From Pseudomonadota bacterium (GTDB lineage Bacteria > Desulfobacterota > Desulfarculia > Desulfarculales > Desulfarculaceae), in NCBI GenBank assembly GCA_043805555.1, contig JAZDHW010000172.1, positions 1,689-65,688 on the forward strand: 64,000 bases of DNA, in the 5' to 3' direction. Positions 25,469-52,521 of this stretch are shown here, piece by piece. Each line of letters begins with the position of its first letter. Within the stretch, counting starts at the first letter, position 1. Position numbers and translations under genes: made by a program. The notes under the pieces are model-generated. The model was given only the letters and a program-made list of their open reading frames with translations, was not told the DNA's origin and ran no database searches.

Positions 25469-27759
25469 AGCCGGCCTCCGCCCACCACGTACATGCGGTG
25501 GCTGTAGGCGTTGAAGACCTCGTAGCCGTCCCCGGCCGGCGCGTACTCCACCCAGAAGGTGGCCTGAAGAGGTCGGTGGGCGGCCAGGCGGTGGCCGGTC
25601 TCCGGGTGCACCCGCGCCTCGCCGCTCCGCTCGGCCTGGGCGATGGCCGCGCGCAGGTCTTCCAGCAGGATGCGGCGCGCCTCCAGGCGCTCGGCCACCT
25701 CCGGGCTCATGCTCAATTTGATGGCCTGGATTTCTGCCACGGCCGCCTCCTCCTCGCCCCAGAGCCGGCGCAGCAGGTCGCGCCTGAGCCGGGAGCGGTT
25801 TTCGCGTCGCATTGACCAGCCCGGCCGGGGCCGGGCGGCCGGGTCGTCAACCCCGGCCGGGGGGAAGACCAGGTCCAGCAGGTGCAGGCAGCGCTTGCCC
25901 GCCCCGGCCAGGCTGTCGCGGCACATGGCGCAATAGGCGATGTAGTCGCCCCCGCCCCGCCCGCCGCGCCGCCGGGCCACCTCGGTGGCCAGGTCCGGGT
26001 TGGCGTTGGCCATCAGGCCGCCGAACCCGCAGCACTCGGTATGCTCGCCGGTCAGCGCCAATTCCGTCAGCCCCACCCCCAGGCGCGCCAGTTGATCGCG
26101 CACCGCCTGGCGCACCGCCGGCAGGTGGCGGCTGGTGCAGGGGTCGTGCAGGGTCAGGGGGCCGGCCGGCGCGGCGGCCAGGTCTTTCAGGTCCAGCGCC
26201 TGCCACAGCGAGACGGTCTCCACCGCGGGCAGGCGCTCGGCGAAAGTCTTCAGGCAGGTGGTGCAGGCGGCGATGATTTGGGGCCGGCCCAGGGACTCCC
26301 ACTGCGCTTGCCACTGGGCGTGGGCCGCGGCCAGGCGGGCCTCTTCGCCCGCCCACAAGGCCGGCGCGCCGCAGCAGCCCAGCATCAGCCCTACGCCGTC
26401 CGCCCGGCCGGACATGAGGCGCTGGTAGACCGCCTCCACCTGGGCCGGGGCCGAGGCCGAGAGCTGGCAGCCGGGGAAGAAGATCGCCGCGCTGGTCTCA
26501 TGGCCGGGCTGGTGCCGGGCCAGGCTGAAGTCCGGGCCCTGGCTGAAGTCCAGGTCCAGCAGGGCGAACTCGTGGGCCGAGGGCGGCATCTTGCCGCGCT
26601 TGACCATGTCGCGCCTGGCCTCCAGGGCGAGGTCCTGCATGGCGAAGTCTTCGGGGCAGACCGCCTGGCACAGGCCGCACAGGCTGCACGAGTTGACCAG
26701 CTTGTTGGCCAGGCGCATGCCCATGACGATGGAGGCGTTGTTGTAGATCTCGCGGGCGTACTTGCGCGGGTAGGAGCCGAAGCGCTCCAGGTAGGCGCAG
26801 ACCTTGACGCACTCCAGGCATTGGCAATTGAGGCAGCGGGCCGCCTCGGCCGAGGCCTCGGCCGCGCCGTAGCCGGCCGGGTTGGCCGGCGCCACGGCCG
26901 ACGAGGGCCCCACCCCGGCCAGGCTGGTGAAGAGCCGGGTGGGCTGGGGGCCTTCCTTCTCGCGGCCCACGGTGAGCGAGACCTTTTGCAGGCGGCGATC
27001 CAGGGAGGCCGCGGCCCAGCGCCCGCGCGCCGTGCGCCACACCGGCGAGGCCTCGACCAGGGCGGCGAAGACCTTATCGGCGCTGGTGGCGCCCAGGGCC
27101 GGGTCCAGCACCAAAGCGCCGTCCGGCCCCGGGGTCAGGGCCAGGCCCGCGCCGGAGCAGGCGGCCAGGTCCACCAGCACCGCGTCGGCCTGCTCCAGGC
27201 CAGCCGCCAGGCAGGCGGGGTCGCCGAGGTCCACACAGGCCACGAAGCTCACCCCGGCCGCGGCCAGGCGGGCGGCCTCGGCGGCGATGACCTCCGGCGT
27301 CAGGGCCGGGAACTCGGCCGTGAGGCCAAAGCCGGGCGTGGGGCCGGCATGGCGCAGGGCCACCGGGTAGCCCTTGCGGGCCAGGTCCCAGGCCGCCGTG
27401 AGGCCGGCCAGGCCGTCGCCCAGCACCGCGACCTTCTGGCTCTTGCGCGGCAGGGGAGACAAACGCAGGCGCGGGACGGGGTGGGCGGTGACCGCCCGCT
27501 CCAAGAGGCCGATGCGGATGGCCTCGCCCGCCTCAGCGCGCTTGCAGCGGGCCTCGCAGGGCGCATCGCAGATGCGGGCCAACAGCCCCGGCAGGGGCAT
27601 GGCCTTCATCAGCACCGCCCAGGCCTGGTCCCAGCGCCCGGCCGCCGCCTGGCCGCACAGGGCGCGGGCGTCCAGGTGCAGCGGGCAGGCTGCCACGCAC
27701 TCCGGTGGCTCTTCCTGGATACAGCGCCGCTCCCACTCGCGCAGCTCGTTTTGTTCCAT
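25465..27759 (-). CDS. Multidomain flavo/Fe-S oxidoreductase: GltD-like N-terminus, 2x[4Fe-4S] ferredoxin, HdrD/GlcF-type CCG domains and a C-terminal extension
   Basis: The motifs are ECVAACP, VAVLGDGLAGL (GxGxxG), CLNCQCLECVKVC, CSLCGLCQAVCP, FFPGCQL, LHDPCTS and ECCGFGG. ATG 27759 was chosen because the upstream track sequence is repeat DNA. Confidence 0.8.
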   Translation of the reverse strand: MEQNELREWERRCIQEEPPECVAACPLHLDARALCGQAAAGRWDQAWAVLMKAMPLPGLLARICDAPCEARCKRAEAGEAIRIGLLERAVTAHPVPRLRLSPLPRKSQKVAVLGDGLAGLTAAWDLARKGYPVALRHAGPTPGFGLTAEFPALTPEVIAAEAARLAAAGVSFVACVDLGDPACLAAGLEQADAVLVDLAACSGAGLALTPGPDGALVLDPALGATSADKVFAALVEASPVWRTARGRWAAASLDRRLQKVSLTVGREKEGPQPTRLFTSLAGVGPSSAVAPANPAGYGAAEASAEAARCLNCQCLECVKVCAYLERFGSYPRKYAREIYNNASIVMGMRLANKLVNSCSLCGLCQAVCPEDFAMQDLALEARRDMVKRGKMPPSAHEFALLDLDFSQGPDFSLARHQPGHETSAAIFFPGCQLSASAPAQVEAVYQRLMSGRADGVGLMLGCCGAPALWAGEEARLAAAHAQWQAQWESLGRPQIIAACTTCLKTFAERLPAVETVSLWQALDLKDLAAAPAGPLTLHDPCTSRHLPAVRQAVRDQLARLGVGLTELALTGEHTECCGFGGLMANANPDLATEVARRRGGRGGGDYIAYCAMCRDSLAGAGKRCLHLLDLVFPPAGVDDPAARPRPGWSMRRENRSRLRRDLLRRLWGEEEAAVAEIQAIKLSMSPEVAERLEARRILLEDLRAAIAQAERSGEARVHPETGHRLAAHRPLQATFWVEYAPAGDGYEVFNAYSHRMYVVGGGRL

Positions 27760-28083: not shown

Positions 28084-30801
28084 CTAGCCCTTCAGGCCGG
28101 CCAGGACCTTCTCGGGCAGGGCGGGGAGCTTGGTGATGCGCACCCCGCAGGCGTTGTAGATGGCGTTGATGATGGCGGCGTGGGGGCAGGTGAGCGGCAG
28201 CTCGCCCACGCCGGCCGCGCCAAAGGGACCTTCGGGCCGGGGCTCCTCCACGTAGATCAGCTCCATCTCGTCGGGAATCTGCTTGGCGTAGGGGAAGCCC
28301 GCGCCGCGCAGGGTGGAGTGCTTCTGGATGTCCTCGAAGTCCTCGGTGAGCGCCAGGCCGATGCCCTGGGCCAGGCCGCCATAGAGCTGGCCGTCGGTGA
28401 CCAAGCGGTTGTTCACTTTGCCGATGTCGGCCACCAGGGTCATCTTCTCCACCGCGGTCTGGCCGGTGGCCACTTCCACCGCCACCTGGGCCATGAACAC
28501 GCCGTACATATAGACCGCAAACGGCGCGCCCTGGCCGTTCTCGTCGCAGGCCGTGGCCGGGGCGGTCCACTTGCCGTCGAAGACGGTGGGGATCTTCTCG
28601 GCCACCATCTCGGCGTAGGTGCGGTAGCTGCCGTCGGCCTTGCGCATGGCGGCCAAGAGCAGCTCGCAGGCGGCCTTGATGGCCTGGCCGGTCACCACCT
28701 GGGAGCGGCTGCCGCCGGCCGGGCCGCTGTTGGGGGTCACCGCGGTGTCGTTCATCACCTGGCGGATCTGGTCGGGCTTCAGGCCCAGGGGGCGCAGGCC
28801 CTGGTGGGCGGTGCCCAGCGCGCCGGCGTCGGCCCCCTGGCCGTGGTCCTCCCAGGAGGTGAACAGCGTCACCCCGCCGTCGGGGTCCAGTTGCAGGCGC
28901 GCCTCGGAGCCGTCCGGGCCGTCCAGGCCGCAGCCGTAGACGCCCACCGAGATGCCCACCCCGCGCTTGACCGCGTCGGTGGACTCGGCCTTGGCCTGGG
29001 CCAGGGCCGCCTGGTACTTGGGCCGGATGATGTCCAGCATCTGGGGCAGGGTGTAGACCTCCGGGGCCTGGCCCGAGGGGTTGGTGGCGCCGGGGCGGTA
29101 GACGTTCTTGAAGCGCAGCTCCAGGGGGTCCAGGCCCAGCTTCTCGGCCAGCTCGTCCATCAGCACCTCGGAGGAGAACTCGCTCTGGGGCGAGCCATAG
29201 GCCCGGAAGGCCGAGCCCCAGGCGTGGTTGGTGCAGACGGTGCGGCCCTCGCCGCGGATGGCCGGGATGTCGTAGCCCGCGCCGATGAACTGGGCCCCGC
29301 GCAGGGTCAAGAGGTCGCCGAACTCCGAGTAGGGGCCGTGGTCCACCGACCAGTCGCTCTCCATGGCCAAGAGCTTGCCGTCCTTGTCAGCGGCCAGGCG
29401 CAGGTTGACGAAAAACGGCGAGCGCTTGCCGGTGTAGGTCATCTGCTGGTGGTAGTCATAGTTCAGGAAAACCGGCTGGCCGGTGGCCAGGCAGGCCACG
29501 CCCACCAGGGCCTCCATGGTGGGGCTGAACTTGTAGCCGAAGGTGCCGCCGGCGGGATTCTGCACCATCACCAGCTTGTCCAGCTCCACGCCCAGGCCGG
29601 CGGCGATCATGGCCGCGTGCAGGTGCAGGCCGATGGACTTGGAGTGGATGCACAGCCGGCCCTGGTCGTCGGCGTAGGCGAAACCCACGTCCGGCTCGAT
29701 GGGCATGTGGGGCTGGCGGCCCACGTAGAAGTCGTCCTCCACCACCACCGGCGCGCTGTCAAAGATGGGCGCGGTCTCCGGGCCCTTGGCGATTTTTTGG
29801 ACGAAGTAGACGTTGGGGGTGCCGGGGTGGATCTCCATGGCGTCCTCGGCCATGGCCGCCGGCGCGCTCATGTAGGCCGGCAGCTCCTCCAGCTCCACCT
29901 TGACCTTGGCCGCCGCGGCCTTGGCCTGGGCCAGGGTGTCGGCGCCGACGATGGCGATGGCGTCGCCGTACTGATAGACCTTCTCGTCGCAGAGGATGGG
30001 CCGGTCCCAGCCGTCGCCCTTGTTGGTGGGGAAGGTGATCAGGCCGGTGATGCGGTTCTTGCCCTTGACGTCCTGGTGGGTGACCACCTTGGCCACGCCG
30101 GGCATCTTCTCGGCCTCGGCGGTGTCAATGCCCTTGATCAGCGCGTGGCTGACCGTGGCCTGCACCAGGGCGCAATGCAGGGTGTTCTCGGGCAGCTTCA
30201 GGCCCAGGTCCGCGCCATAGTCCAACGTGCCGGTGACCTTGCCCACCGCGGTGGGCCGGGGGTGCTTGCCGCCCCATATCACGCCGTCGGCCGGAAGCTT
30301 GTACATCAGCTCCTCGGCCTTCATCTCCCCGCGCATGACCTTGGCCGCGTCCATGACCGCGTCCACCAGGGGCTTGTAGCCGGTGCAGCGGCAGGCGTTG
30401 CGGTGCACCTGGAACCAGTCGCGCACCTGGTCCCGGCTGGGGTTGGGGTTCTCGGCCAGAAGCGCCTTGGACGAGACGATGAAGCCGGGGCTGCAGAAGC
30501 CGCACTGGGCGCCGCCGTGGAGGATCCAGGCCAGTTGCAGGGGGTGCAGGTTGTCCGGCTGGCCCACGCCCTCGATGGTGATGACGCTGGCCCCGTCGGC
30601 CACCTTGCCCAGCTTGGTCACGCAGGAGCGCACCAGCTTGTCGTCCAGGATCACGTTGCACGCCGCGCACTGGCCCTGGCCGCAGCCGATCTTGACGCCG
30701 GTCAGGCCGAACTGCTGGCGCAGCACGTTGGCCAGCGACTCCTCGGCCGGCGCGATGACCGTGCGGGTTATACCATTGATTTTAAGTGATTTCTTGATCA
30801 T
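28084..30801 (-). CDS. mop: Aldehyde oxidoreductase, Mo-pterin + 2x[2Fe-2S] (xanthine oxidase family, MOP type)
   Basis: 905 aa. The N-terminus MIKKSLKINGI...GCGQGQCAACNV...RNACRCTGY carries the two 2Fe-2S motifs. Length and N-terminus resemble Desulfovibrio gigas MOP as I recall it. Confidence 0.9.
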   Translation of the reverse strand: MIKKSLKINGITRTVIAPAEESLANVLRQQFGLTGVKIGCGQGQCAACNVILDDKLVRSCVTKLGKVADGASVITIEGVGQPDNLHPLQLAWILHGGAQCGFCSPGFIVSSKALLAENPNPSRDQVRDWFQVHRNACRCTGYKPLVDAVMDAAKVMRGEMKAEELMYKLPADGVIWGGKHPRPTAVGKVTGTLDYGADLGLKLPENTLHCALVQATVSHALIKGIDTAEAEKMPGVAKVVTHQDVKGKNRITGLITFPTNKGDGWDRPILCDEKVYQYGDAIAIVGADTLAQAKAAAAKVKVELEELPAYMSAPAAMAEDAMEIHPGTPNVYFVQKIAKGPETAPIFDSAPVVVEDDFYVGRQPHMPIEPDVGFAYADDQGRLCIHSKSIGLHLHAAMIAAGLGVELDKLVMVQNPAGGTFGYKFSPTMEALVGVACLATGQPVFLNYDYHQQMTYTGKRSPFFVNLRLAADKDGKLLAMESDWSVDHGPYSEFGDLLTLRGAQFIGAGYDIPAIRGEGRTVCTNHAWGSAFRAYGSPQSEFSSEVLMDELAEKLGLDPLELRFKNVYRPGATNPSGQAPEVYTLPQMLDIIRPKYQAALAQAKAESTDAVKRGVGISVGVYGCGLDGPDGSEARLQLDPDGGVTLFTSWEDHGQGADAGALGTAHQGLRPLGLKPDQIRQVMNDTAVTPNSGPAGGSRSQVVTGQAIKAACELLLAAMRKADGSYRTYAEMVAEKIPTVFDGKWTAPATACDENGQGAPFAVYMYGVFMAQVAVEVATGQTAVEKMTLVADIGKVNNRLVTDGQLYGGLAQGIGLALTEDFEDIQKHSTLRGAGFPYAKQIPDEMELIYVEEPRPEGPFGAAGVGELPLTCPHAAIINAIYNACGVRITKLPALPEKVLAGLKG

Positions 30802-31043
30802 GAAAGCCTCCTGGCAGCGGTTGGGCGATTACTGGCCTGTCAAACGGCGGGGTGGTTACTTGCGCCCTGCCCGGCGGTTATGCGGGGTGTGGTGAAGACT
30901 TTCCTGCGCAGGACGTTAATTTCAATATGCCAAAAGCGCCTGCCGCTTGCAACTTGATTTTACTGAGTTTTCAATTGCTTATGTGTTTAATAGTGTTATT
31001 TTAAGCATGTTTGTGCAATTGAGCCGCCGCGCATGGCGAAACC

Positions 31044-31060
31044 ATTGCCCATTGGGCAAT
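31044..31060. repeat. 17-bp perfect palindrome ATTGCCCATTGGGCAAT (copy 1)
   Basis: An identical copy lies at 32718-32734. Confidence 0.9.
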
Positions 31061-31249
31061 GTGCGCAAACGTAGCGTATACCCAGATGGCCACTGTTTAC
31101 TTAGGCCAACGACATTTCGTGATGCTTATGAAGATTCGCAGGAATGCAGGTGCTGCGAGCAGTTTTTGCCTTATATTGGTCTGTAATACATCATTGGCTG
31201 GAGCAAACTATTTGAAACTATCGAATCATTGTTAATGAGTAAGTATGCA

Positions 31250-32602
31250 TTATTCAAACGGTCTTCCGAAATAGGTTAGTACAGCGAGAGCAACGAGGTA
31301 CAAGCTAATTACCGATTGTATGCCGGATACCAAGCGAACCCAACCTGTCGCACGTAATAAATACTCGCGTGGTTGCATGTGGCTCATCCAGGTGCCTACA
31401 TTTAAGTCACGCCATCCAAATCGGAACGCGGAGAGTACAGAAAAATAAAATGAATAAGCTAGCTTATATTTCCATGTTAATGATTTAATTGATTCTGGTG
31501 TGTCAGTCCCTTCATCAAGCCGTATCCGGTCAGGCTGCCAACTGCGCCATATACATCCACCACCTTTCACGTACAATGAGACTAGATATATTAATGCGAA
31601 CGGGATAATTAAATACAATAGATATAGTACTGGCTGGATTGGATACAGCCCCCAACCACAAGTAACCCCAAAAAGTAGTTGTGGGATAAAATTGAGTACA
31701 TCATTGTCTTTAATTATTTCATTACTTTTTATTGCATACGTTAATTCCCGTTCTGATTGTCTCAGCCCATAGGCTATAAATGTATTCCGTAAACCCGCAA
31801 GACCTACAGGAGAGTGGTTATATGTTAACTTATCTAAGTTTTGCGCAGTAGAAATAAATAATGGTGAAGGCAAGGCTTTAGGATCTATATCGAATACCAC
31901 TCCATCCATATTAGCCATAGCAAAACTGGCACCGGTTAAATCGGAATCATAAAATTGAGTATTCTGCAACCTACAGTTATAGAAATTTGCATTCACCAAT
32001 TTTGCTTGTGTGAATACTGCCCCATTACAGTCAGCTTCGCAAAAGTTTGCCCTTGAGGCATCTAATGCAATAAACTTTGTATTTCTCAAATCGGCCTTAT
32101 ATAGCTTTGCGCCTACCATGCTCGCATATTCTAAATTTGCACCTTCTAAGTGAATACCTTCCATGTCTGCATCACAAAACTTCGCCAATCTTAAATCGCG
32201 CAATCTCAGATCAGCACCCCTCAAGTTGGCACCAGAAAAATCAGCCCTTTTTATCTTGTAAGCCTTATTGAACGACTCCTGATCCATTTTTTGAATGATT
32301 AGATTCAAATAACGTCTGGTCTTTGGTCCGCTCGAATACGCTGTCCATACCTCCTTTACCCATGCCTCGTGCGAAGCAATTATGCGATTCAAATCCGTTT
32401 CAGATATGGCTGAACCATCTATTAAGAGTCCCTGCCATTCTGATTTGTGTTTTTGCCCTACAACTTCGCCTGCATTACTCGGGCAGGTACCCAATACGGT
32501 GAATATTGTCACTACTATTAAAAATATTAAGTTCGTTACCGCCGGCATACTTTTCACCTCAATGATCACTATGGCTCCAACCTTCTGGCTCGGGATACCC
32601 AA
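31250..32602 (-). CDS. Pentapeptide-repeat protein with an N-terminal signal/TM segment and a C-terminal membrane domain
   Basis: It has a long run of A(D/N)LxG-type pentapeptides (ADFSGANLRGADLRLRDLRLAKF...) and C-terminal hydrophobic helices. The gene is strikingly AT-rich. The start is 32602 or 32548. Confidence 0.8.
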   Translation of the reverse strand: MGIPSQKVGAIVIIEVKSMPAVTNLIFLIVVTIFTVLGTCPSNAGEVVGQKHKSEWQGLLIDGSAISETDLNRIIASHEAWVKEVWTAYSSGPKTRRYLNLIIQKMDQESFNKAYKIKRADFSGANLRGADLRLRDLRLAKFCDADMEGIHLEGANLEYASMVGAKLYKADLRNTKFIALDASRANFCEADCNGAVFTQAKLVNANFYNCRLQNTQFYDSDLTGASFAMANMDGVVFDIDPKALPSPLFISTAQNLDKLTYNHSPVGLAGLRNTFIAYGLRQSERELTYAIKSNEIIKDNDVLNFIPQLLFGVTCGWGLYPIQPVLYLLYLIIPFALIYLVSLYVKGGGCIWRSWQPDRIRLDEGTDTPESIKSLTWKYKLAYSFYFSVLSAFRFGWRDLNVGTWMSHMQPREYLLRATGWVRLVSGIQSVISLYLVALAVLTYFGRPFE

Positions 32603-32717
32603 GCTAGCAACAGGCTGTGCCTAAAATTACCATCTTCCAGCCATATTTTGTCAATCGAAAAATCATTTCCAGTTAATGTGTCCGATTTCATGACTACTCC
32701 TCGAAATAGCCTCCCCT

Positions 32718-43495: not shown

Positions 43496-44131
43496 TCACT
43501 CCTCCGGGCAGAGCCGGGCCACCAGCAGGTTGGTCAGGGCCCATACCCCGTCCAGGGCCAGCTGGTGGTGGGCGTTGGCGTCCAGGCCCACCACGGCCCG
43601 GGCGCTGAATTCCTCGTCTGCCGCCCAGAGCAGCACGAAAAGCGGCAGGTGGGGCAGGCCGGGCACCTGCACCGCCACGTCGCCGCCGGCATTGCTGGGC
43701 GTCCCGCCCAGGGCCGCGGCGCGCTGGACCAGGGCGGCCGGCTCGTGGCCAAAGGCCGCCTCCAGGGCGCGGGTGTTGACCGCGTGGGGGCCGGTGAAAA
43801 AGAGCGAGCCGCCGGGCAGCTCCTGGGGGGTGACCATGCGCCCGGCCGGGGGCACGCCCAGGGCGCGGGCCAGGTGGCTGACCAGGATCATGCCGGCCTG
43901 GAAGCCCACCCGGTGTTGGGGCCGGTCCGCCTCGCGCACCCGGCGCGCGGCCGGGTCCACCCGGTATGCGCGCCCGGCCAGGGGCAGGTGGTAGCAGCCG
44001 TCCTGCCATTGCGCGCCCGCCGCCTGGGCCGCCTCAGGGGCCGGGCGGGCGGCAAGGTCGTCCCACAGGGCGGCCGGCAATTGATCCGCCCAGCGGAAAA
44101 GGGCTATTTCCTGGGGATCAAGCGTCGCCAT
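43496..44131 (-). CDS. Hypothetical protein (possibly DUF3786-like)
   Basis: It is a 211-aa ORF with good coding appearance. Its start overlaps the carboxyltransferase stop by 14 nt. Confidence 0.5.
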   Translation of the reverse strand: MATLDPQEIALFRWADQLPAALWDDLAARPAPEAAQAAGAQWQDGCYHLPLAGRAYRVDPAARRVREADRPQHRVGFQAGMILVSHLARALGVPPAGRMVTPQELPGGSLFFTGPHAVNTRALEAAFGHEPAALVQRAAALGGTPSNAGGDVAVQVPGLPHLPLFVLLWAADEEFSARAVVGLDANAHHQLALDGVWALTNLLVARLCPEE

Positions 44132-46010
44132 CGGTGACCACCGCGGTTAGGCCCTCGCCGGGCAGGCGGCGCTGATAGGGCCGCCAGCCCGCCCGCTGCT
44201 TGGGCTGGCCGCGCCGGGTGCGCGCGAAAAGCTCCAGGTACTTGGCTACGGCCATGCCCATGCTCTCGCGGGGGACCACTTCCTGGATGCCCCGGATGTC
44301 GCCGAAGTAATCGGGCTTCTCCAGGCACTGGGCCGAGATCGCCACCAGGCTGTCGGCCCGCACCGCGTCCTCCTGCACCTCGAAGCCGCGGGCCTTCATC
44401 ACCCGGGGGCCGGTGAAGATGACCATGGCGCCGGGCTCGGCCAGGCAGACGTCGCCCAGGGCGGCATAGGAGGCGATGGCCCCGCCGGTGGAGGGGTCGC
44501 CCAGGATGGAGATGAAGGGCAGGCCGGCCTGCTTGAGCCGCTCCACCGCAGCCACGGTCTTGTACATCTGCATCAGCGCCACGATGCCCTCATACAGCCG
44601 CGCGCCGCCGGAGCAGCAGACGCTGACCAGGGGCCAGCCCTTGCGCAGGGCGTATTCCACGGCCAGGCGGAACTTTTCGCCGAAAACCACCCCCATGGAG
44701 CCGCCGGCAAAGGCGAACTCGCTGATGGCCAGCACGCAGGGATAGCCCTTGATGGTGGCCTGGGCGGTGACCAGCGACTCGGTGAAGCCGGTGCGCTTCT
44801 TCTGTTTGGTGAGGAAATCGCGGTAGTAGTTGTGGATGTCTTCCTCGTCCAGCAGGTCGTGGACGGTCATGTTGCGGAATAGCTCGTGGAAGGTGCCGGG
44901 ATCGGCCAGGGCGTGGATCCAGCCGGCCGCGTCCAGCACGTGCCGGGACCCGCAGTTGGGGCAGACCTGGTGGTTCTTCAGGTATTCGTCCAGGGGGATC
45001 ATGGCCTCGCAGCCGGGGCCGTTGTCGCCGGTGTGGACGTCCTTGCACAGCACGTAGGCCTGGCCCGGGGTCAGCACGGTGCCGTCGCCGTAGTAGTCGT
45101 CCACGTGGATGGCCCCGGAGGGGGCCTCGATGACCTTGACGTCCGGCGGGGCCTTGTGCAGGGTCTTCAGGGGCTTTTCGATAAAGCGCTTCAGTTCGTA
45201 GAAGCGGCCGCGCTTCATCACGCCCAGGTCCTCGGCCCGCTCGAATCGCTGGAACAGGAGCTTGTCCAGGTTGCGCCGGAAAAGCTCGCGCACGGTCTTG
45301 TCCAGCCAGGCCTCTATGTTCCTGGCCAGGCCGTCGGCGTCGTCCACCTTTTTGGTGGCCGGGATCACCGCCTCCACCACGTTGAAGTGCTTCAGGTCCT
45401 TGGCGGTGGACTTGCTGATGGTCAGGGCGTCCTCGATGCGGCCGGCGTCGCGGAAAATGATGGCGGCCAGCGACTCCGGCGGGGCGGTGGCATAGAGGGC
45501 GTCCTCCACCGCCGCCCGGCGGTCGGCCACCTGCAGGGCCAGGGCCCCGCCCGAGCCGCCCTCGCCCAGCACGATGCTGGCGGTGCGGAGGGGCACGCTC
45601 AGGTAGGCGCGGATCAGGTGGGCGATGAAGAAGGCCTGCAGGCGCAGGGCGCTGTACATGGAGATGTCGGCGCCGAAGGTGTCCACGAACGACAGCAGCA
45701 GGGAGTCCTCATGGGGGCCGGTCTGCTTGAGCCGGCGCAACAGGCCCAGCACCTGGGCGTGCTCGTCGGCGTTGAGCATGCCCCAGTTGAGACGGGCCAC
45801 GGCCTCCGGGCTGCTGAACTGCTCTGGCCGGGGCTTCTGCTGGCCGATCACGTAGACCCGCCGGCCGGCCAGGTGGCCCTCGCCCATGATGAGCGAATCG
45901 CCCACGGCCCCATAGTCGCGAAAATCGGCCAGCAGGCGCTGGATGACGTCGGAGGCCCGGGGCCGGAAGGGATGCCGGGTGCGGGTCTTGAAAACGTCCA
46001 GTAACTTCAA
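44118..46010 (-). CDS. Fused carboxyltransferase (AccA-like N-terminal half, AccD-like C-terminal half with zinc ribbon)
   Basis: The N-terminal half has VLGEGGSGGALAL. The C-terminal half has CPNCGSRHVLD followed by AFAGGSMGVVFGEKF and ...CSGGARLYEG. Confidence 0.85.
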   Translation of the reverse strand: MKLLDVFKTRTRHPFRPRASDVIQRLLADFRDYGAVGDSLIMGEGHLAGRRVYVIGQQKPRPEQFSSPEAVARLNWGMLNADEHAQVLGLLRRLKQTGPHEDSLLLSFVDTFGADISMYSALRLQAFFIAHLIRAYLSVPLRTASIVLGEGGSGGALALQVADRRAAVEDALYATAPPESLAAIIFRDAGRIEDALTISKSTAKDLKHFNVVEAVIPATKKVDDADGLARNIEAWLDKTVRELFRRNLDKLLFQRFERAEDLGVMKRGRFYELKRFIEKPLKTLHKAPPDVKVIEAPSGAIHVDDYYGDGTVLTPGQAYVLCKDVHTGDNGPGCEAMIPLDEYLKNHQVCPNCGSRHVLDAAGWIHALADPGTFHELFRNMTVHDLLDEEDIHNYYRDFLTKQKKRTGFTESLVTAQATIKGYPCVLAISEFAFAGGSMGVVFGEKFRLAVEYALRKGWPLVSVCCSGGARLYEGIVALMQMYKTVAAVERLKQAGLPFISILGDPSTGGAIASYAALGDVCLAEPGAMVIFTGPRVMKARGFEVQEDAVRADSLVAISAQCLEKPDYFGDIRGIQEVVPRESMGMAVAKYLELFARTRRGQPKQRAGWRPYQRRLPGEGLTAVVTDGDA

Positions 46011-47038: not shown

Positions 47039-47316
47039 GGCGTCGGTCCCGTGACAAGTGCTGCCGCCGGCTGCGCGCCCGTCCCCCGGCCGGGGCTGCG
47101 GGTGCGCACAAGCCCAGTTTACCGCAAGCCGCCCCGGTCGGGGCCGGACGCAATTAATAGAACCCGCCCAATCATCCAGGTTTAAAATAGGAATTAGCGT
47201 CGGCCGGCCGGGCGGTCCGGCTGGCAGTCCGGGCGGATCTCCGCTAAACAAGCATGCATCCAGGCTGGTTGTTTCTGCCCGGCGCCTTGGGGAAAACGCG
47301 GTTTCGGGAGCTGCCG

Positions 47317-48495
47317 ATGGAAAAAAGCCACATCCCAGGTGCGGTGGCGGTGCGGGTGGCCGAGACCCAGGCCGAGCGCGAGGCCATCTATGCCTTGCGC
47401 TACCAGGTCTATGTCCGGGAGCTCAAAAAGGCCAATGTGGACAACGCCGACCACGCCCAGGGCTGGATCAGGGATCCGGAGGACGACCAGCCCCAGACCA
47501 TCCTGCTCTACAGCGGGCCGCGGGACGCGCCGGCCGGCACCATGCGGCTCAGGGTATGGGCGCAGGGCGAGGTGGACCAGCACACCGCCCAGATCTATTC
47601 CCTGGCCCGCTTCCCGGATCTGAACCGCCAGGCGGTTTTCGAGATATCGCGGCTGATCGTCAGCCCCTCGGTGCGCAGCAGTCCGGTGGCCCCCAGTCTG
47701 TTCGAGGCGGCCTACCGCCTGGCCGTGGGCCGGCGCCACGCCCACATCGGCTTCCTCTACTGCGCGCCCGGCCTGTCGCGGGCCTACCATCGCCTGGGCT
47801 TCCGCGGCTACCAGGGCGAGCTGATCCCCAGCCCGGACGGCCTGCGGGTGCCCATGGTGATGATCGCCGGCGACCTGGAACACTTCCAGAAGGTGGGCAG
47901 CCCGCTCACCCCCCTGGTGCAGGAGCACTTCCCGGCCGGCTCGGACCACCACGCCGACACCACCGACTACCGGTATTTGGTGGAGGGGGCCTTCCATCCC
48001 TATGAGCTGGACCCGGCCGCGGTGTGGCGGGAGATGCAGGAATCCCTGGTGGATAACGAGCGGCCGGCCTCGGTGTTTCTGGACAAGGTGCCGCCCGAGG
48101 CCCTGAAGCGCCTGGCCGACGCGGCCACGGTGATGGAGGCGCCGGCCGGGGCGGTGATCACCCGCGAAAAGCTGGTGGAGGAGGAGATGTTCCTGGTGCT
48201 CTCCGGCGAGTTCCAGGTGCTGCTCAACGGCCAGCGCCTGGTCGTGCTGCGCCCCGGTGACATCGCCGGCGAGCTGGCCCTTTTCCTGCCCAACCACCAG
48301 CGCACCGCCAACATCGAGGCCGTCACCCCCGGCCGCCTGGTGGTCATCGGCCGCAAGTTCATGGCCACCATCAAGAAGGAGAACCCGGCCCTGGCCGCCG
48401 AGCTGCTGGAGAACCTGTGCCGGATCATGGCCAGCCGCCAGGCCGCCACCGACGTGGTCTGCTACGCCACCAAGCCGGCCCCGGACGGCGTCTAG
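47317..48495 (+). CDS. N-acyl amino acid synthase (FeeM)/autoinducer-synthase-like GNAT fused to a cyclic-nucleotide-binding domain
   Basis: The N-terminus is AETQAEREAIYALRYQVYVRELKK...FEISRLIV. The C-terminus is a cNMP beta-barrel with GDIAGELALF...RTANIEA. A GGGAG RBS precedes ATG 47317. Confidence 0.65.
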   Translation: MEKSHIPGAVAVRVAETQAEREAIYALRYQVYVRELKKANVDNADHAQGWIRDPEDDQPQTILLYSGPRDAPAGTMRLRVWAQGEVDQHTAQIYSLARFPDLNRQAVFEISRLIVSPSVRSSPVAPSLFEAAYRLAVGRRHAHIGFLYCAPGLSRAYHRLGFRGYQGELIPSPDGLRVPMVMIAGDLEHFQKVGSPLTPLVQEHFPAGSDHHADTTDYRYLVEGAFHPYELDPAAVWREMQESLVDNERPASVFLDKVPPEALKRLADAATVMEAPAGAVITREKLVEEEMFLVLSGEFQVLLNGQRLVVLRPGDIAGELALFLPNHQRTANIEAVTPGRLVVIGRKFMATIKKENPALAAELLENLCRIMASRQAATDVVCYATKPAPDGV

Positions 48496-48663
48496 TTGCG
48501 TGTCGGAGAAAGCCATTCATGGCTTTCTCCTCTTGGAACTTGCCAAAAGTGAATTTTGGCAAGTTCTCGGAATGGCGCCAAAAATTAATTTGGCGCCATT
48601 CCGGGCGGGCCGTCCATGGCCCGCTCGGAAGCCTGTCGGAGGATTACTCCGACAGGCTTCTAG
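48493..48663 (+). mobile_element. 171-bp MITE-like element, copy C
   Basis: It is near-identical to copies A and B and bounded by CTAG...CTAG. Its first TAG is the stop codon of the upstream gene. Confidence 0.75.
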
Positions 48664-48726
48664 GGCTCGCAACAAACCGGGCGGGCCCGGCGCTCCGGCC
48701 CCGCCCGCCGGCTTAGCTGACGCTGC

Positions 48727-49062
48727 CTAGCAGGAGCAACCGCTGCCGCAGGAGCCGCTGCCGCAGCTCTCGCCCGCGGCCAGGGGATTGGCCGAGGAGA
48801 GCACGAAGCCCTGCTGGTAGCCGTTGTCCAGGTAGTCGATGCTCACTTCGCCACTTTGCGCGGCCAGGCTCGGCTCGATCAGATAGGTCAGGCCGTCCAC
48901 CTCGTACTTCTCATCCCCGTCCTTGGCCTCGTCCAGCACCAGGCGCAGCGAGGAGCCGCAGCATCCGCTGGATTGCACGACGATGCGCAGGGCCGAATCC
49001 AGGCTGCGCTCCTGCATGAACTCCTTGATGTTCTGGCTGGCCGCTTCACTCACCTTGATCAT
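48727..49062 (-). CDS. HesB/IscA-like Fe-S assembly protein, Cys form
   Basis: The sequence contains MIKVSEAASQNIKEFM, RIVVQSSGCCGSSLRLVLDE and the tail CGSGSCGSGCSC. Confidence 0.8.
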   Translation of the reverse strand: MIKVSEAASQNIKEFMQERSLDSALRIVVQSSGCCGSSLRLVLDEAKDGDEKYEVDGLTYLIEPSLAAQSGEVSIDYLDNGYQQGFVLSSANPLAAGESCGSGSCGSGCSC

Positions 49063-49183
49063 AACGCCTCTTCCTTCCTGCCCGGGGGGCTGGTTGCTGT
49101 CTTTCTAGATAATGGTTCCTAAATTTTGAAATGCAAGCTGAGGCCAGGAGTAAGACCGAGGTGTGACGCGGAGCCGGGCCGGG

Positions 49184-49222
49184 CCCAAAAGCAAGGCGGA
49201 GAAGGGCAAGCCCTTCTCCGCC
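49184..49222 (-). terminator. Rho-independent terminator candidate after the Sec-type hesB-like gene
   Basis: The minus strand reads GGCGGAGAAGGGC-tt-GCCCTTCTCCGCC followed by TTGCTTTTGGG. Confidence 0.55.
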
Positions 49223-49241
49223 GGACAGGTCAAGGCCTATA

Positions 49242-49565
49242 TCAACAGGAGCAACCGCTGCCGCAGCTTCCACCGCCACCGCCCAGGGGGTTGGTGGCCG
49301 AGAGTACGAAACCCTGCTGCCAGCCGTTGTCGATGTAATCAACTTTAACCGTGCCGCTTTGGGTGCTCAGTTCCTTGTCGATGAGGTAGGTTAGCCCATC
49401 CACCTCGGTCTTCTCGTCGTTGTCCTTCGGTTCATCCAGAACCAGTCGCAACGAAGGGCCGCTTCAGCCGCCGGACTGCAGGAAGACCCGCAGGGCGGAA
49501 CTGAGCTGCCGCTCCTCCATAAAGGCCTTGATGGCCTTGCTGGCGGAATCGGTCACTTCGATCAT
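49242..49565 (-). CDS. HesB/IscA-like protein with in-frame TGA (putative selenocysteine at codon 34)
   Basis: ATG 49565 opens MIEVTDSASKAIKAFMEERQLSSALRVFLQSGG-TGA-SGPSLRLVLDEPKDNDEK...GGGGGSCGSGCSC. The TGA at 49466-49464 aligns with the first Cys of SSGCCGSS in the paralog. The track only lists the 69-aa part after the TGA. Confidence 0.7.
49424..49457 (-). promoter_or_regulatory. SECIS-like hairpin starting 6 nt after the in-frame UGA
   Basis: The mRNA reads UGAAGCGG-CCUUC-GUUGCGACU-GGUUC-UGGAU-GAACC-GAAGG. This gives two stacked 5-bp helices, a 5' bulge and a G-containing apical loop. Confidence 0.5.
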
Positions 49566-49773
49566 GGTATACGTTCCTTCCTGCACTTAGCGTCGTGCGC
49601 CATTGTTTCCATAAATAATGGCAACGAATCCGCTTCCGGGCAAGTAGCGAGATGCGTTTTTCTGGCGCGTGAGCAAAATATGCCAGGATTTTCGGCAAGG
49701 TCGACCACTTGCCAGGACCGGCGGGCTTTAGTAACATCAGGAGCCGCATAAGTCAACCACAGCGTCGAGGGTC

Positions 49774-52521
49774 ATGTCAGCCTCCAGATCGTCATCTCAG
49801 ACCAGGCCCCGCAACTTCAAGCCGATGCGTGTATCCCGGCCGGGCGGGGCCGTGCGCCTGGATTCCCTGCGCCTGTTGCGCCGGTTCTGGCGCCTGTCCG
49901 ACGACATGTTTTTCCGCCTGGACGTGGCCACCGGCCTTTTCGACCACGTCAGCCCGGCGGTGAGCCGGATCTTCGGCTGGCCCCGGGCCGAGGTGCTGCG
50001 CACCCCCGACTTCCTATTCCAGATAGTCCATCCCGACGACCGCGGGAAGGTGCTGGCCTGGCACCAGGAGTGCCTGCGGGCGGGCCGCATCGACAGCACC
50101 ATGGAGGTGTTCCGCGCCCGCCGCCGGGACGGCCGCGACGTCTACATCCACCACAAGCTGCGCCCCATCTATGACCAGGCCGGCCGCCTGACCCACGTGG
50201 AGGGCATCGCCCGCGACGCCACCGGCCTGGTGGATCTGCGCCTGGAGATGGAGCGCATCCTGGACGCGCTGCCCGGCCTGGTGGTGCGCCTGGACGAGGA
50301 CCTGCGCGTCACCTGGGCCAACCGCCGCTGGCTGTGCCTGTTGGGCCGCGAACTGGCCGACACCCTGGGCCAGGCCGGCGTGCCCCTGATGACCGCGGCC
50401 GAGGGCGCGGTGGATTTGCTGCAGACCCTGGCCAGCCTAGAGCTGGAGCGCCCGGCGGTGAGCCTGTCGCCCCTGGTGTTGCCCGGCCGCGAGGACAAGG
50501 CCATCATCATCTGGCGCTTCGTGGTGCTGGCCAAGGCCGGGGGCGGGCGCGAAATCATCTGCCTGGGCCAGGACGTCACCGACCAGATCTCGGCCCAGGC
50601 CGCCCTGCAGCAGACCAGCCAGGAGCTGGGCAAGGTGGTGAGCCTCCTGGACCGGGCCCCGGTGATGGCCAGCCGCAGCCGCTGGACCCGGGCCCAGCGC
50701 CTGGAGGTGGAGTACGTCAACCGGGGCTGCCTGGCCATATTGGGCTACACGCCCGAGGAGCTCATGAGCGACCCCGGCCTGACCCGGCGCATCCTGCCCG
50801 ATCCCTGGTACCAGCACTACTATGGCCTGGCCGCCAAGTTCCTGGCCACGGCCAAGCCCGGCGACAGCATCACCACCGAGTACGGCTTCGTGCGCAAGGA
50901 CGGCAGTCCGGGCTGGGCCCGGCACACGGCCTGGGTTGCGGACATGGACCTGGACACCCAGGAGCTGGTGGTGGAGGCCTGCATCCACGACATCACGGCC
51001 CTCAAACAGGCCGAGCAGGCCCTGCGCCAGAGCGAGCAGGAATACCGCCAATCCCACGCCCGGTTGCAGGCCTTGATGGAGAACACCAGCGATTTCATGG
51101 TGATAAGCGACAAGGATGGCCGGTCGGAGCATTTCAACACCGCCTACGCGCAGATCATGCGCGAGGCGCTGGGCCTCCAGATGCGCCCCGGCCTCAAGCC
51201 CCACACCCTGCTGCCCTCGGCCGAGGACCGCGACTATTGGGAACACCTTCACCGGCGGGTGCTCTCCGGCGAAAAGTTCCGGGCCGATTTCAGCCTGGAC
51301 ATCGCCGGCCAGGGCCGGCGCTATTTTGACGCATCCTTCTCGCCCATCATGGAGGACGGCGAGGTCAAGGGCTTTTGCGAGATCACCAGCGACATCACCG
51401 CCCACAAGCTGGCCGAGCAGACCCTGCGCCAGATGACGGCCGGCATGGCCCACAATTTCAACAACCTGCTGGCCGCGGTGCTGGGCAACGCCCAGGCGGT
51501 GCAGCAGATGTTCTACGAGCATCGCCTGGAGTCGGCCCAGGCCGCGGAGCTGATGGCCAACGTGGTGGAGAGCGCCCGGGCCGGGGTGCAACTGGTGCAG
51601 CGCCTGGCCGCCTGCGCCGCCACCCGGGCCGAGCCGGACCAGCAGGCCGCCCAGGCGGTGGACGCGGTGGAGATCGCCGAGCGCGCCCTGTGCATCGCCA
51701 GCCGGGCCTGGCCGGGCCAGGCGGCGGCCGGGCTGCGCCTGGAGACCCAGGTGCAGGGGCCGTTCTGGGTGCGGGCCCATCCCGGCGCGTTGCTGGAGGT
51801 GTTCCTGAACCTGGCCAAGAACGCCCTGGAGGCCATGGCCGGCTGCGGGGTGCTGATCGTGGAGGGCGAGGCCGGCGCGGACTGGGTCCGGCTGAGCTTC
51901 AGCGACAACGGCCCCGGCATGGACGCCGAGATCGCCCATCGCGCCTTCGAGCCCTTTTTCAGCACCAAGCAGGGCTCGGGCCTGGGCCTGCCCAGCAGCC
52001 GCGGTATCCTGCGCTCCCTGGGGGGGGACCTGGTGCTGCGCACGCTGCCGGGCCGGGGCTGCGAGGCGGTGGTGACCCTGCCCCTGGCCCGCCCGCCCCG
52101 CCCTGCCGCCGCCCCGCCCGCCCCGGCCAAGGCCCGCGGCGAACGGGTGCTCTTGCTGGAGGACGAGGCCCTGGTGGCGCTGGGCATCGAGGCCATGCTG
52201 AGCGCGGCCGGCTACCGCCTGCGCTGGTCCACCCGCCTGGAGGAGGCCCTGGCCGTGCTGGAGGAGTTCGCCCCCCAGGCCGTGATCTGCGACCTGGGCC
52301 TGCCCGACGGCAACGGCTGGGACCTGGCCCGGGCCGCGGCCCGCCTGCCCCGGCGGCCGGCCATCATCCTGCTCACCGGCTGGGGCAGGGAGCAGGCCGA
52401 CGCCTGGGCCGGCGACGACCCGGTGGAGCTGGACGCGGTGCTGCACAAGCCGGTGGAGCACAGCCTGCTGTTGAACACCCTGGCCCAGACCCTGCAACGC
52501 CGCCAGCCGATCGCCTGCTGA
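49774..52521 (+). CDS. Multi-PAS hybrid sensor histidine kinase with a C-terminal receiver
   Basis: Several PAS-like modules are present, along with the H-box MTAGMAHNFNNLL, HATPase motifs (DNGPGM, GSGLGL) and a REC domain (VLLLEDE...VICDLGLPDG...HKP). The start is uncertain. Confidence 0.85.
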   Translation: MSASRSSSQTRPRNFKPMRVSRPGGAVRLDSLRLLRRFWRLSDDMFFRLDVATGLFDHVSPAVSRIFGWPRAEVLRTPDFLFQIVHPDDRGKVLAWHQECLRAGRIDSTMEVFRARRRDGRDVYIHHKLRPIYDQAGRLTHVEGIARDATGLVDLRLEMERILDALPGLVVRLDEDLRVTWANRRWLCLLGRELADTLGQAGVPLMTAAEGAVDLLQTLASLELERPAVSLSPLVLPGREDKAIIIWRFVVLAKAGGGREIICLGQDVTDQISAQAALQQTSQELGKVVSLLDRAPVMASRSRWTRAQRLEVEYVNRGCLAILGYTPEELMSDPGLTRRILPDPWYQHYYGLAAKFLATAKPGDSITTEYGFVRKDGSPGWARHTAWVADMDLDTQELVVEACIHDITALKQAEQALRQSEQEYRQSHARLQALMENTSDFMVISDKDGRSEHFNTAYAQIMREALGLQMRPGLKPHTLLPSAEDRDYWEHLHRRVLSGEKFRADFSLDIAGQGRRYFDASFSPIMEDGEVKGFCEITSDITAHKLAEQTLRQMTAGMAHNFNNLLAAVLGNAQAVQQMFYEHRLESAQAAELMANVVESARAGVQLVQRLAACAATRAEPDQQAAQAVDAVEIAERALCIASRAWPGQAAAGLRLETQVQGPFWVRAHPGALLEVFLNLAKNALEAMAGCGVLIVEGEAGADWVRLSFSDNGPGMDAEIAHRAFEPFFSTKQGSGLGLPSSRGILRSLGGDLVLRTLPGRGCEAVVTLPLARPPRPAAAPPAPAKARGERVLLLEDEALVALGIEAMLSAAGYRLRWSTRLEEALAVLEEFAPQAVICDLGLPDGNGWDLARAAARLPRRPAIILLTGWGREQADAWAGDDPVELDAVLHKPVEHSLLLNTLAQTLQRRQPIAC

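Follow-up and report, generated by a model that had tools for sequence, protein, structure and literature searches.

A mis-split gene for a predicted IscA/HesB-type selenoprotein, with a conserved in-frame UGA and hairpin, in Desulfarculales

Background

The family of HesB-like selenoproteins has been known since the mid-2000s, i.e. for some twenty years, and TIGR01911 is the model that reviews cite for it (for example for the protein of Clostridium perfringens). Deltaproteobacterial members are reported by Zhang et al. 2006 (PMC1794560, Tables 1 and 3, supplementary file 4). The HesB-like protein of the archaeon M. maripaludis was identified as a selenoprotein by 75Se labelling and mutagenesis (PMC11097638) and is the only family member so tested. 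NCBIfam holds a further model, NF038090 ("IscA_HesB_Se"), which no paper of the literature searched mentions. Published HesB-like selenoproteins clear its cut-off of 85 bits: S. fumaroxidans and D. vulgaris both score 114 and S. aciditrophicus 107 (range 106.8-114.1).

The hairpin that belongs to such genes has been described for the E. coli fdhF-type SECIS and in the bSECIS consensus (Zhang and Gladyshev model; PMC13188914) as an element of the coding region just past the UGA. The bSECIS criteria applied here (PMC13188914, Fig. 2A) are a loop of 3-9 nt, a stem of 4-16 bp, a G at loop position 1 or 2 and a spacing of 16-37 nt, at an MFE of -7.5 kcal/mol or lower.

We analysed a candidate for this family in a stretch of 64,000 nucleotides of Desulfarculales DNA (the window). 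An initial annotation, made from the letters alone, had proposed an unrecognized selenoprotein gene there and had pointed to HesB-like selenoproteins in deltaproteobacteria, which is correct according to Tables 1 and 3 of PMC1794560.

Results and discussion

Gene structure and family assignment

The region 49242-49565 (minus strand) is very probably one gene, which encodes a 107-residue IscA/HesB-type selenoprotein. Its frame is opened by ATG 49565-49563 and runs for 107 codons plus a stop, with a single in-frame TGA on the way. The 33 codons from the ATG to this TGA read, on the minus strand, MIEVTDSASKAIKAFMEERQLSSALRVFLQSGG. The TGA itself (49466-49464) is residue 34 and is read here as a predicted Sec codon; the 73 codons past it end in ...CGSGCSC and are closed by the stop TGA at 49244-49242. 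The initial annotation had drawn this frame in the same way, and each of its landmarks was found on the sequence. It had also remarked that the ORF track breaks up the gene and lists a 69-aa tail; this is so (49242-49451), and the same mechanical list holds a 40-aa head as well (49464-49586).

Many other genes in the window end at an ordinary TGA stop, as does the selenoprotein gene itself, so that the genome uses neither code 4 nor code 25. We scanned the window for in-frame TGAs with at least 30 open codons on either side (271 in all) and checked these for coding-like GC1/GC2/GC3. The TGA at 49466-49464 is the only real case with coding-like composition on both sides. One other match, the TGA at 25813, was rejected because its GC1 is that of an antisense frame. 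This composition-aware scan gives no second selenoprotein gene in the window, and on the relatives' flanks it gives only adjacent genes that share a frame, again with no second selenoprotein gene.

For HMM scoring, Cys was substituted for the TGA. The resulting protein reaches 121.3 bits with NF038090 (cut-off 85) and 32.3 bits with PF01521 (Pfam, Fe-S_biosyn domain; gathering score 26.3), in agreement with the HesB/IscA identity given in the initial annotation. TIGR00049 is passed at the borderline (59.0 against 58.8). The score with TIGR01911 (HesB_rel_seleno) is 42.8 bits and falls short of the cut-off of 66.35; the gene is therefore filed under NF038090 and not under TIGR01911. The two groups have the PF01521 fold family, the Sec position and the UxGP motif (U-S-G-P in the window protein) in common. 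They differ in that the C. perfringens protein scores 98.8 bits with TIGR01911, and in that this model, within the models' domain limits, is shorter than NF038090 (92 positions) and has no C-terminal Cys motif. Scores with the equivalog models lie far below their cut-offs: 44.6 against 150.6 for IscA, 41.9 against 136.2 for SufA and 43.7 against 117 for ErpA. The window protein resembles these three carriers in its domain, its length, the first ligand position at the UGA and a C-terminal Cys-x-Cys. It differs from them by these scores, by a predicted Sec in place of the first-ligand Cys and by its location outside any isc or suf operon; none of its gene neighbours is related to Fe-S clusters or selenium.

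Closer likeness is found with the published proteins of S. fumaroxidans, D. vulgaris and S. aciditrophicus. The window TGA falls in the same alignment column as their U, within GG-U-SG-P/L, and the four proteins also share the LDEP segment (which encodes the hairpin discussed below), a Gly-rich linker and the C-terminal Cys-x-Cys. Identity is 50% to the S. fumaroxidans protein and 37-50% to the published members, which makes the clade of the window protein a distinct one within the subfamily, as judged by sequence. Unlike the published members, it belongs to hosts of the order Desulfarculales, and five of its genomes have a tandem Cys-Cys paralog.

The initial annotation had equated the TGA with the conserved cluster-ligand Cys of IscA-type proteins. 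The alignment bears this out: besides the U of the published selenoproteins, the TGA matches Cys35 of E. coli IscA (SGCSG; 1R94/1S98) and the Cys of GGCSG in Aquifex AQ_1857 (1NWB). By alignment, the predicted Sec thus sits at the first of the three cluster-ligand Cys positions of A-type carriers, the other two being represented by the C-terminal C-S-C. Within the ligand pattern C-x(n)-C-x-C the window protein would accordingly have Sec as its first member; the C-S-C is present, and an extra Cys precedes it in CGSGCSC.

Conservation of the UGA codon and the hairpin

The comparison covered the window and 21 species-level Desulfarculales genomes (22 Sec-type genes in total), with five Cys paralogs as contrast. 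The same architecture is found in all 21 other genomes. TGA occupies the same codon in 22 of the 22 Sec-type genes and, in the 19 genes checked, is the sole in-frame stop within the first 94 codons. The five Cys paralogs all have TGC at this codon, so that the alignment of orthologues and paralogs yields the Sec/Cys pairs that the initial annotation had suggested looking for. That annotation had also named a stop with no conserved upstream frame as evidence that would count against it. Such a pattern did not turn up: the protein sequence of the 33 codons ahead of the TGA is conserved, and the tail invariably follows the head without a break in the frame. Nucleotide variation at codon positions 1, 2 and 3 amounts to 0.27, 0.15 and 0.40 before the TGA and to 0.19, 0.13 and 0.41 after it, i.e. 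substitution is of the coding type on both sides. This pattern is kept among orthologues with up to about 40% protein divergence, and in the tree the nearest outgroups of the clade are published Sec forms. One relative, L023, has a clearly broken copy with a 5-nt and a 1-nt deletion.

For this clade, public records hold the gene in two fragments. Examples are the tails of 66-73 aa entered as "hypothetical protein" for Dethiosulfatarculus sandiegensis and for Desulfoferula mesophila, and the N-terminal stubs of Desulfarculus MAGs. Among cultured relatives, Dethiosulfatarculus sandiegensis SPR and Desulfocarbo indianensis SCBM have the gene.

Directly downstream of the selenoprotein gene lies a Cys paralog of 111 aa (48727-49062, minus strand), which has its own RBS and scores 104.9 bits with NF038090. 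Its Cys-Cys pair (48963-48958) occupies the Sec-Ser position of the selenoprotein. Because 33 residues precede the site in both genes, the first Cys codon (48963-48961) of the paralog lines up with the TGA, as the initial annotation had it. The tandem arrangement of Sec and Cys-Cys genes occurs in five genomes (the window, L001, L004, L012 and L017), and the TGA gene is found without an adjacent Cys paralog in 17 genomes.

Just past the TGA the mRNA can form a conserved upper stem-loop, UGGUUC / UGGAU / GAACCG (49428-49444, minus strand), which we predict to be a bacterial SECIS. Its arms are 49444-49439 and 49433-49428, its loop UGGAU is 49438-49434, and it lies within codons 41-46 (L-V-L-D-E-P). 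In the window the loop has 5 nt, the stem 6 bp and the spacing from the UGA to the apical loop 25 nt, with an MFE of -17.1 kcal/mol for the 60-nt downstream segment. All four bSECIS criteria hold, in identical register, for 22 of the 22 Sec-type genes and for none of the five Cys paralogs; RNAalifold returns the same 6-bp stem. The clade consensus, GGUUC-UGGAY-GAACC, is almost invariant. Compared with the bSECIS consensus, the apical loop of 5 nt, the G at position 2 followed by another G, the upper stem of 5-8 bp, the spacing of 25 nt and the MFE below -7.5 kcal/mol are all alike. The optional N1-N2 loop-closing pair is U-U or U-C in the window clade and so is unpaired, and beyond the general pattern the hairpin sequence is unrelated to that of fdhF.

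Taken from the window sequence alone, the fold is not significant (z = -1.67 for 66 nt; 12 of 200 shuffles fold equally well), and the significance of the hairpin derives from its conservation across genomes. RNAalifold finds no double compensatory changes in the stem, which is nearly invariant and changes only in wobble-compatible ways. Because of this lack of covariation, the structural case rests on the constraint at synonymous sites and on the contrast with the Cys paralogs. In the arms, all 22 genes use GTT for Val and CTG for Leu, and 21 of 22 use GAA for Glu, the single GAG codon retaining a G-U pair. This synonymous freeze is confined to the stem arms; neighbouring 4- and 6-fold codons vary freely. 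The Cys paralogs share this peptide but use different codons for it (GTG and GAG in four of the five, TTG and GAG in L017) and have no hairpin.

The initial annotation had drawn a longer structure, in which a lower stem CCUUC/GAAGG with a 9-nt bulge extends the hairpin to 49424-49457. The stem-loop itself stands, with its upper 5-8 bp conserved. The lower stem does not: MFE folds of this part differ among genomes without a consensus, and in the window it competes with a UCGUUG/CAACGA pairing. Likewise, what matters is the 25 nt between the UGA and the apical loop, not the 6 nt to the stem as drawn. Searches with Rfam gave no SECIS or tRNA-Sec match, either for the whole window at gathering thresholds or for 49230-49640 at E up to 10, and returned only chance matches (mir-3960, HOTAIRM1 and similar). 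This result carries little weight because Rfam has few bacterial SECIS models.

Expression signals and proposed mechanism

A Shine-Dalgarno sequence, AGGAAGG (49576-49582, minus strand), lies 10 nt 5' of the ATG and is kept as GGAAGG or GGAAAGG in most orthologue upstream regions. Further upstream, conservation points to a promoter-like region (49615-49661, minus strand) with an A-tract (49661-49657), a -35 element TTGCCC (49643-49638), a spacer of 17 nt, a TG (49623-49622) and a -10 element CATTAT (49620-49615). The pattern CTTGCn, 17 nt, TGcCATATT is kept in 17 of the 18 genomes aligned. The region agrees with the sigma-70 consensus at 8 of 12 positions, just below the scan threshold of 9 of 12, so that the assignment as a promoter rests on conservation and not on the scan. 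Two other readings of the conserved 5' region were rejected: a riboswitch or regulatory RNA, as the alignment resolves into promoter hexamers and an RBS, and a sigma-54 GG-N10-GC motif, which fails across genomes. Behind the gene, the scan matched an intrinsic terminator (49195-49222, minus strand) with a 12-bp stem (9 of 12 pairs G-C) and a loop UUGC, followed by UUGCUUUU. Of the four other genomes with tandem paralogs, at least three have a GC-rich hairpin at this position; that of L001 lies just outside the aligned stretch. With this terminator in between, the selenoprotein gene is a transcription unit apart from the Cys paralog.

We propose that the mRNA would start at the gene's own promoter and end at its own terminator, and that ribosomes would initiate at AUG 49565. 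The hairpin GGUUC-UGGAU-GAACC, 25 nt past UGA 49466-49464, would then recruit SelB with Sec-tRNA(Sec). Termination would thereby be replaced by Sec insertion, and translation would run on to the second UGA (49244-49242), which would terminate as it has no such hairpin in register. The product may bind or transfer iron, an Fe-S cluster or some related thiophilic cargo, and a selenolate would then replace one of the thiolates.

Genes for this machinery were sought by tblastn with SelA, SelB and SelD from E. coli and from deltaproteobacteria against the window and 23 loci. Neither the 64-kb window nor some 350 kb of relatives' flanks gave a selA, selB or selD homologue, and ARAGORN detects no tRNA-Sec (selC) in the window or these flanks. 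In a database search with SelA, the best 120 of 8,000 matches are all of the Syntrophobacteraceae type.

Alternative explanations

The same observations may be set against three other accounts of the locus. A duplicated IscA/HesB gene might have been inactivated by a change from TGC to TGA, with the adjacent Cys paralog as the functional copy. The change needs a single base, a functional-looking paralog does lie 500 nt downstream, and decay is seen in the broken copy of L023. However, one and the same TGA is kept in all 22 Sec-type genes, with coding-type substitution on both sides up to about 40% protein divergence and with no further in-frame stops. The 17 genomes with a TGA gene and no adjacent Cys paralog, as well as the position of the published Sec forms as nearest outgroups, speak against it too. 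A pseudogene thus appears effectively refuted by conservation, and we consider its chances negligible. Scarcely better are the prospects of two separate products, a 33-aa peptide ending at the UGA and a 69-aa C-terminal protein starting from TTG 49451. Gene callers do predict a free-standing tail protein in many genomes (P0008, P0018, P0022-P0062), but its start codon is not kept among orthologues: most genomes have CTG, CTC or CTA at codon 39, and in L001 and L009 both candidate tail starts are CTG or CTC, with no ATG, GTG or TTG. Moreover, there is no Shine-Dalgarno sequence ahead of the tail start, whereas a strong and conserved RBS precedes ATG 49565. On its own, the tail would have no first ligand residue and would lack half of the PF01521 domain, and it is never found apart from the head or out of its frame.

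Read-through of the UGA with another residue (Trp, Cys or Gly, by a near-cognate or suppressor tRNA or a variant code), which the hairpin would merely stimulate, is very unlikely as well, if somewhat less so than the other two. It would fit the lack of Sec machinery in the window and the relatives' flanks, and a public pipeline gave Trp at the site in orthologue P0012. But in P0012 the terminal TGA is also rendered as W (...CSCW), and the Trp is therefore an artefact of the translation table. A variant code is at odds with the many window genes that end in TGA, the selenoprotein gene among them. Sec insertion, in turn, agrees with a hairpin that fits the bSECIS criteria in loop size, G position and spacing, and with a site that is the Sec site of published family members.

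The tandem Cys paralog

Given Sec insertion at the UGA, the paralog 500 nt downstream would be a selenium-independent isoform. The tree gives a hint that duplication of a Sec ancestor, with conversion of Sec to Cys-Cys, produced the Cys forms. It is conceivable, though less likely than not, that the tandem pair, in which the Sec gene has its own conserved promoter and terminator and the Cys-Cys paralog its own expression signals, is a selenium-responsive pair of isoforms of an A-type Fe-S carrier. By analogy with the Sec/Cys isoenzyme pairs of Methanococcus, cells would rely on the Sec form as long as they have selenium and fall back on the Cys-Cys form otherwise. The selenolate of the Sec form might then ligate the cluster or iron directly.

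Conclusions

Summarizing, the locus is very probably a genuine selenoprotein gene that has been mis-split, and it adds a member to a known family. The biological gain is small, and the value lies mainly in the correction of an annotation: the gene is routinely mis-annotated, and the correction applies to the window and at least 21 related genomes. For searches in other genomes, the near-invariant GGUUCUGGAYGAACC with its loop 25 nt past the UGA could serve as a pattern. The finding also marks the Desulfarculales as probable Sec users; no report of selenoproteins or selenium use in this order was found in the literature searched. Experiments might be worthwhile only for the tandem Sec/Cys-Cys pair. 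If the isoform reading is true, the pair would offer a genetically simple two-gene system for the role of selenium at an Fe-S ligand position.

Reading frame of the Sec gene

Read on the minus strand (48600-49800), the IscA/HesB-type gene at 49242-49565, here called the Sec gene, starts at an ATG (49565-49563) and runs through 33 codons, MIEVTDSASKAIKAFMEERQLSSALRVFLQSGG in the translation of 49242-49565, into an in-frame TGA at 49466-49464. Past this codon the frame is open for 73 codons more (SGPSLRLVLDEPKDNDEK...GGGGGSCGSGCSC) and ends at 49244-49242 in a terminal stop that is also TGA. The initial annotation had described the same frame and both TGA codons, and its description is reproduced exactly. 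It had also reported that the ORF track splits the gene, as seen in the mechanical ORF list, where a 69-aa tail (49242-49451, minus strand, TTG start) and a 40-aa head are listed.

Since the GC content of the window is 68.6%, true frames can be distinguished by composition. Among 271 in-frame TGAs in the window (at least 30 open codons required on each side), the Sec-gene codon alone is a genuine hit, the composition being coding-like both before and after it; one other hit of the scan was rejected as an antisense frame. Elsewhere in the window TGA is a normal stop, as it is at the Sec gene's own end. P0012, an orthologue from the database search (JGI metagenome contig, 64,412 nt), was translated by a public pipeline with Trp at both the Sec codon and the terminal TGA (...SGGWSGPS...CSCW); the pipeline evidently read the contig with a TGA=Trp table that is wrong for it.

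Conservation in relatives

The protein search yields three types of match: full-length Cys forms of about 110 aa, many tails of 66-73 aa beginning with M/LRLVLDEPKD, and N-terminal fragments ending in ...LQ[AS]GG. This pattern is the trace of gene callers stopping at the conserved TGA. Of the 24 loci found in a scan of species-representative genomes, 23 are Desulfarculales-type. The Sec-type gene carries the TGA at the identical codon in 22 of 22 cases (the window and 21 scanned loci), and the Cys paralogs have TGC there in five of five.

These data exclude that the gene is a pseudogene: besides the invariant TGA, no other in-frame stop occurs in the first 94 codons of the 19 genes checked, and variation follows a coding pattern on both sides (0.27/0.15/0.40 at codon positions 1/2/3 in the 33 codons upstream of the TGA, 0.19/0.13/0.41 downstream). 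Two separate products can be excluded as well. The 69-aa tail has no conserved start: the codon is CTG, CTC or CTA in most genomes compared, two relatives (loci L001 and L009) have no start codon at either candidate site, and no Shine-Dalgarno precedes the putative start of the tail; the upstream frame is conserved, and a conserved GGAAGG precedes the ATG of the Sec gene. Orthologues with a stop but no conserved upstream frame would have spoken against a selenoprotein; the frame is kept with coding-type variation and the call survives.

In Desulfarculales bacterium strain Dcd-1 (L023, 5126-5440) the orthologue is broken: the GGC-GGC-TGA site is lost to a 5-nt deletion, and the frame is regained about 90 nt further on by a 1-nt deletion. 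In-frame stops lie between the two deletions, although the sequence of the SECIS hairpin is preserved. This copy represents either a recent selenoprotein loss or an assembly error.

The SECIS hairpin

On its own, the fold of the window hairpin is unremarkable (z = -1.67) and it has no match in Rfam. Across genomes the core GGUUC-UGGAY-GAACC is almost invariant. Val+8 is GTT, which is unusual for GC-rich genomes, and Leu+9 is CTG in each of the 22 Sec-type genes; Glu+11 is GAA in 21, the lone GAG keeping a G-U pair, and Pro+12 is invariant. For each of the neighbouring Pro+3, Ser+4, Arg+6 and Gly+23, four or five synonymous codons occur. In contrast, the Cys paralogs encode L-V-L-D-E as CTG GTG CTG GAC GAG in four of five cases (CTG GTT TTG GAT GAG in the relative L017) without the Pro that follows, and the hairpin cannot form.

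Four criteria for the bacterial SECIS (bSECIS) have been published (PMC13188914, Fig. 2A). When the 60 nt that follow the UGA are folded to minimum energy, the same hairpin is found in all 22 TGA genes, whereas all five Cys paralogs fail the criteria. In these TGA genes the 5-nt loop has G at positions 2 and 3, the upper stem has 5-8 bp, the spacing from UGA to loop is exactly 25 nt and the energy of the segment ranges from -12 to -22 kcal/mol. RNAalifold recovers the same stem, with no double compensatory changes because the stem scarcely varies; the evidence for the hairpin is thus constraint and the contrast with the Cys paralogs, not covariation. Of the SECIS-like hairpin initially proposed, the upper stem-loop is conserved and qualifies as a bSECIS throughout, but the lower stem CCUUC/GAAGG is not conserved. 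The SECIS of the Desulfarculales Sec genes is unusually uniform.

Protein family and ligand position

With Cys substituted for the TGA, the Sec-gene product passes the cut-offs of Pfam PF01521 (Fe-S_biosyn; 32.3 bits against 26.3) and NCBIfam NF038090 'IscA_HesB_Se' (121.3 bits against 85) and falls below that of TIGR01911 'HesB_rel_seleno' (42.8 bits against 66.35). Reviews cite TIGR01911, with the motif UxGP, for the HesB-like selenoprotein family (PMC13188914, Table 1). Among the published sequences (Zhang et al. 2006; PMC1794560, supplementary file 4), those of S. fumaroxidans (114.1 bits), D. vulgaris (113.9 bits) and S. aciditrophicus (106.8 bits) all pass NF038090, and the C. perfringens protein passes TIGR01911 (98.8 bits), which indicates that, of the published family, NF038090 represents the deltaproteobacterial branch. 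Judged by sequence, the Sec gene is a member of this branch. The published U and the window TGA share one alignment column, and the S. fumaroxidans protein is 50% identical to that of the window.

Residue 34, the TGA position, aligns with Cys35 of E. coli IscA (1R94/1S98), the Cys of SGCSG, and with the Cys of GGCSG in Aquifex AQ_1857 (1NWB), in agreement with the earlier view of the TGA as standing in for the conserved ligand Cys. As the alignment shows, the predicted product resembles the A-type carriers, has a selenolate where they have their first ligand and carries a C-terminal C-S-C. From its family membership, a role in Fe-S or metal handling may be inferred.

The tandem Cys paralog

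The paralog at 48727-49062 (minus strand) has 33 residues ahead of its Cys-Cys pair, as many as precede the TGA, which places the first Cys codon of the pair (48963-48961) in the same register as the TGA, as first noted. In five genomes (the window; L001, 10627; L004, 10510; L012, 496; L017, 1245) the Sec gene is followed immediately, on the same strand, by a Cys paralog; the other 17 loci have no adjacent paralog. Four of the five carry a Cys-Cys doublet at the Sec-equivalent site and L017 a single Cys; the paralogs of L001, L004 and L012 have one residue extra at the doublet site. In a neighbour-joining tree, without support values and from a short protein, the Desulfarculales Sec and Cys forms fall in one clade with the published Sec forms as nearest outgroups, which suggests that the Cys-Cys paralogs derived from a Sec ancestor.

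Transcription units

Aligning the upstream regions of 18 genomes reveals a conserved order of A-tract, CTTGCn, 17 nt, TGcCATATT and RBS. In the window (minus strand) it comprises a -35 element TTGCCC (49643-49638), a TG element (49623-49622), a -10 element CATTAT (49620-49615) and the RBS AGGAAGG (49582-49576). At 8/12 against the sigma-70 consensus, the promoter lies just below the scan threshold of 9, so we infer it from conservation. The region 49615-49661 (minus strand) and its equivalents in 17 loci are conserved beyond the hexamers (GTTGCCATATT and the upstream A-tract), in genomes with protein divergence of up to about 40%; a common regulator site that overlaps the -10 element may account for the extra conservation.

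The scan places a terminator with a 12-bp stem after the Sec-gene stop (49222-49195, minus strand), and of the four other genomes with a following Cys paralog at least three have a GC-rich hairpin in this position (that of L001 lies just beyond the aligned stretch). With a terminator between them, the Sec gene and the Cys paralog look like separate transcription units.

Genomic surroundings

The neighbours of the Sec gene encode a PAS/histidine-kinase/receiver protein, a PrmA-like methyltransferase, a FeeM-like and cNMP-binding protein, a GNAT protein and an AccA-AccD fusion; none of them has a relation to Fe-S or selenium. L001 is collinear with the window at 84-87% nucleotide identity and is thus a close yet distinct relative. 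In the window, the Sec gene is separated from the conserved PrmA-like neighbour by an inserted histidine-kinase gene. Seven relatives (L003, 8365; L008, 2211; L013, 8713; L015, 6423; L016, 7973; L021, 5650; L022, 7258) have a tRNA-Pro(CGG) gene 1-4.5 kb upstream of the Sec gene; the window does not.

The single 630-aa ORF at 44118-46010 (minus strand) joins alpha-like (PF03255) and beta-like (PF01039) carboxyltransferase domains with a zinc-ribbon between, and looks like an AccA-AccD fusion of acetyl-CoA carboxylase domains. At 47254-48495 (plus strand) a FeeM-like N-acyl amino acid synthase/GNAT domain (PF21926) is combined with a cyclic-nucleotide-binding domain (PF00027), which is unusual. 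A low-GC island (30850-32700; 36-45% GC against 68.6% for the window) was probably acquired horizontally. It holds a single 450-aa ORF (31250-32602, minus strand), by eye pentapeptide-repeat-like in its N-terminal half and hydrophobic in its C-terminal half, adjoining a gene at 28084-30801 (minus strand) whose translation appears, by eye, aldehyde-oxidoreductase-like.

Proposed Sec decoding and significance

Neither tRNA-Sec nor a second selenoprotein gene was found in the window or the relatives' flanks, and SelA, SelB and SelD homologues are absent from the window and about 350 kb of flanks (E. coli and deltaproteobacterial queries). In a SelA database search the best 120 of 8,000 hits were all Syntrophobacteraceae-type. 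The literature searched contains nothing on selenium use in Desulfarculales. The case for Sec decoding of the UGA is an indirect one: in the absence of such decoding the gene would be only 33 codons long, and the 73 downstream codons would not be kept open and under selection in 22 lineages. Standard bacterial Sec insertion is the best-supported mechanism, in which the ribosome would reach the UGA and the hairpin would bring in SelB with Sec-tRNA(Sec).

Summarizing, the observation is real and its initial interpretation as a selenoprotein is right. The family itself is already known, having been described in the mid-2000s and now being represented by a curated NCBI model. The novelty is modest: in the window and its relatives the gene lacks an annotation and is split, the literature searched contains no selenoprotein record for the host order Desulfarculales, the SECIS is uniform, and some genomes keep a tandem Cys-Cys backup copy.
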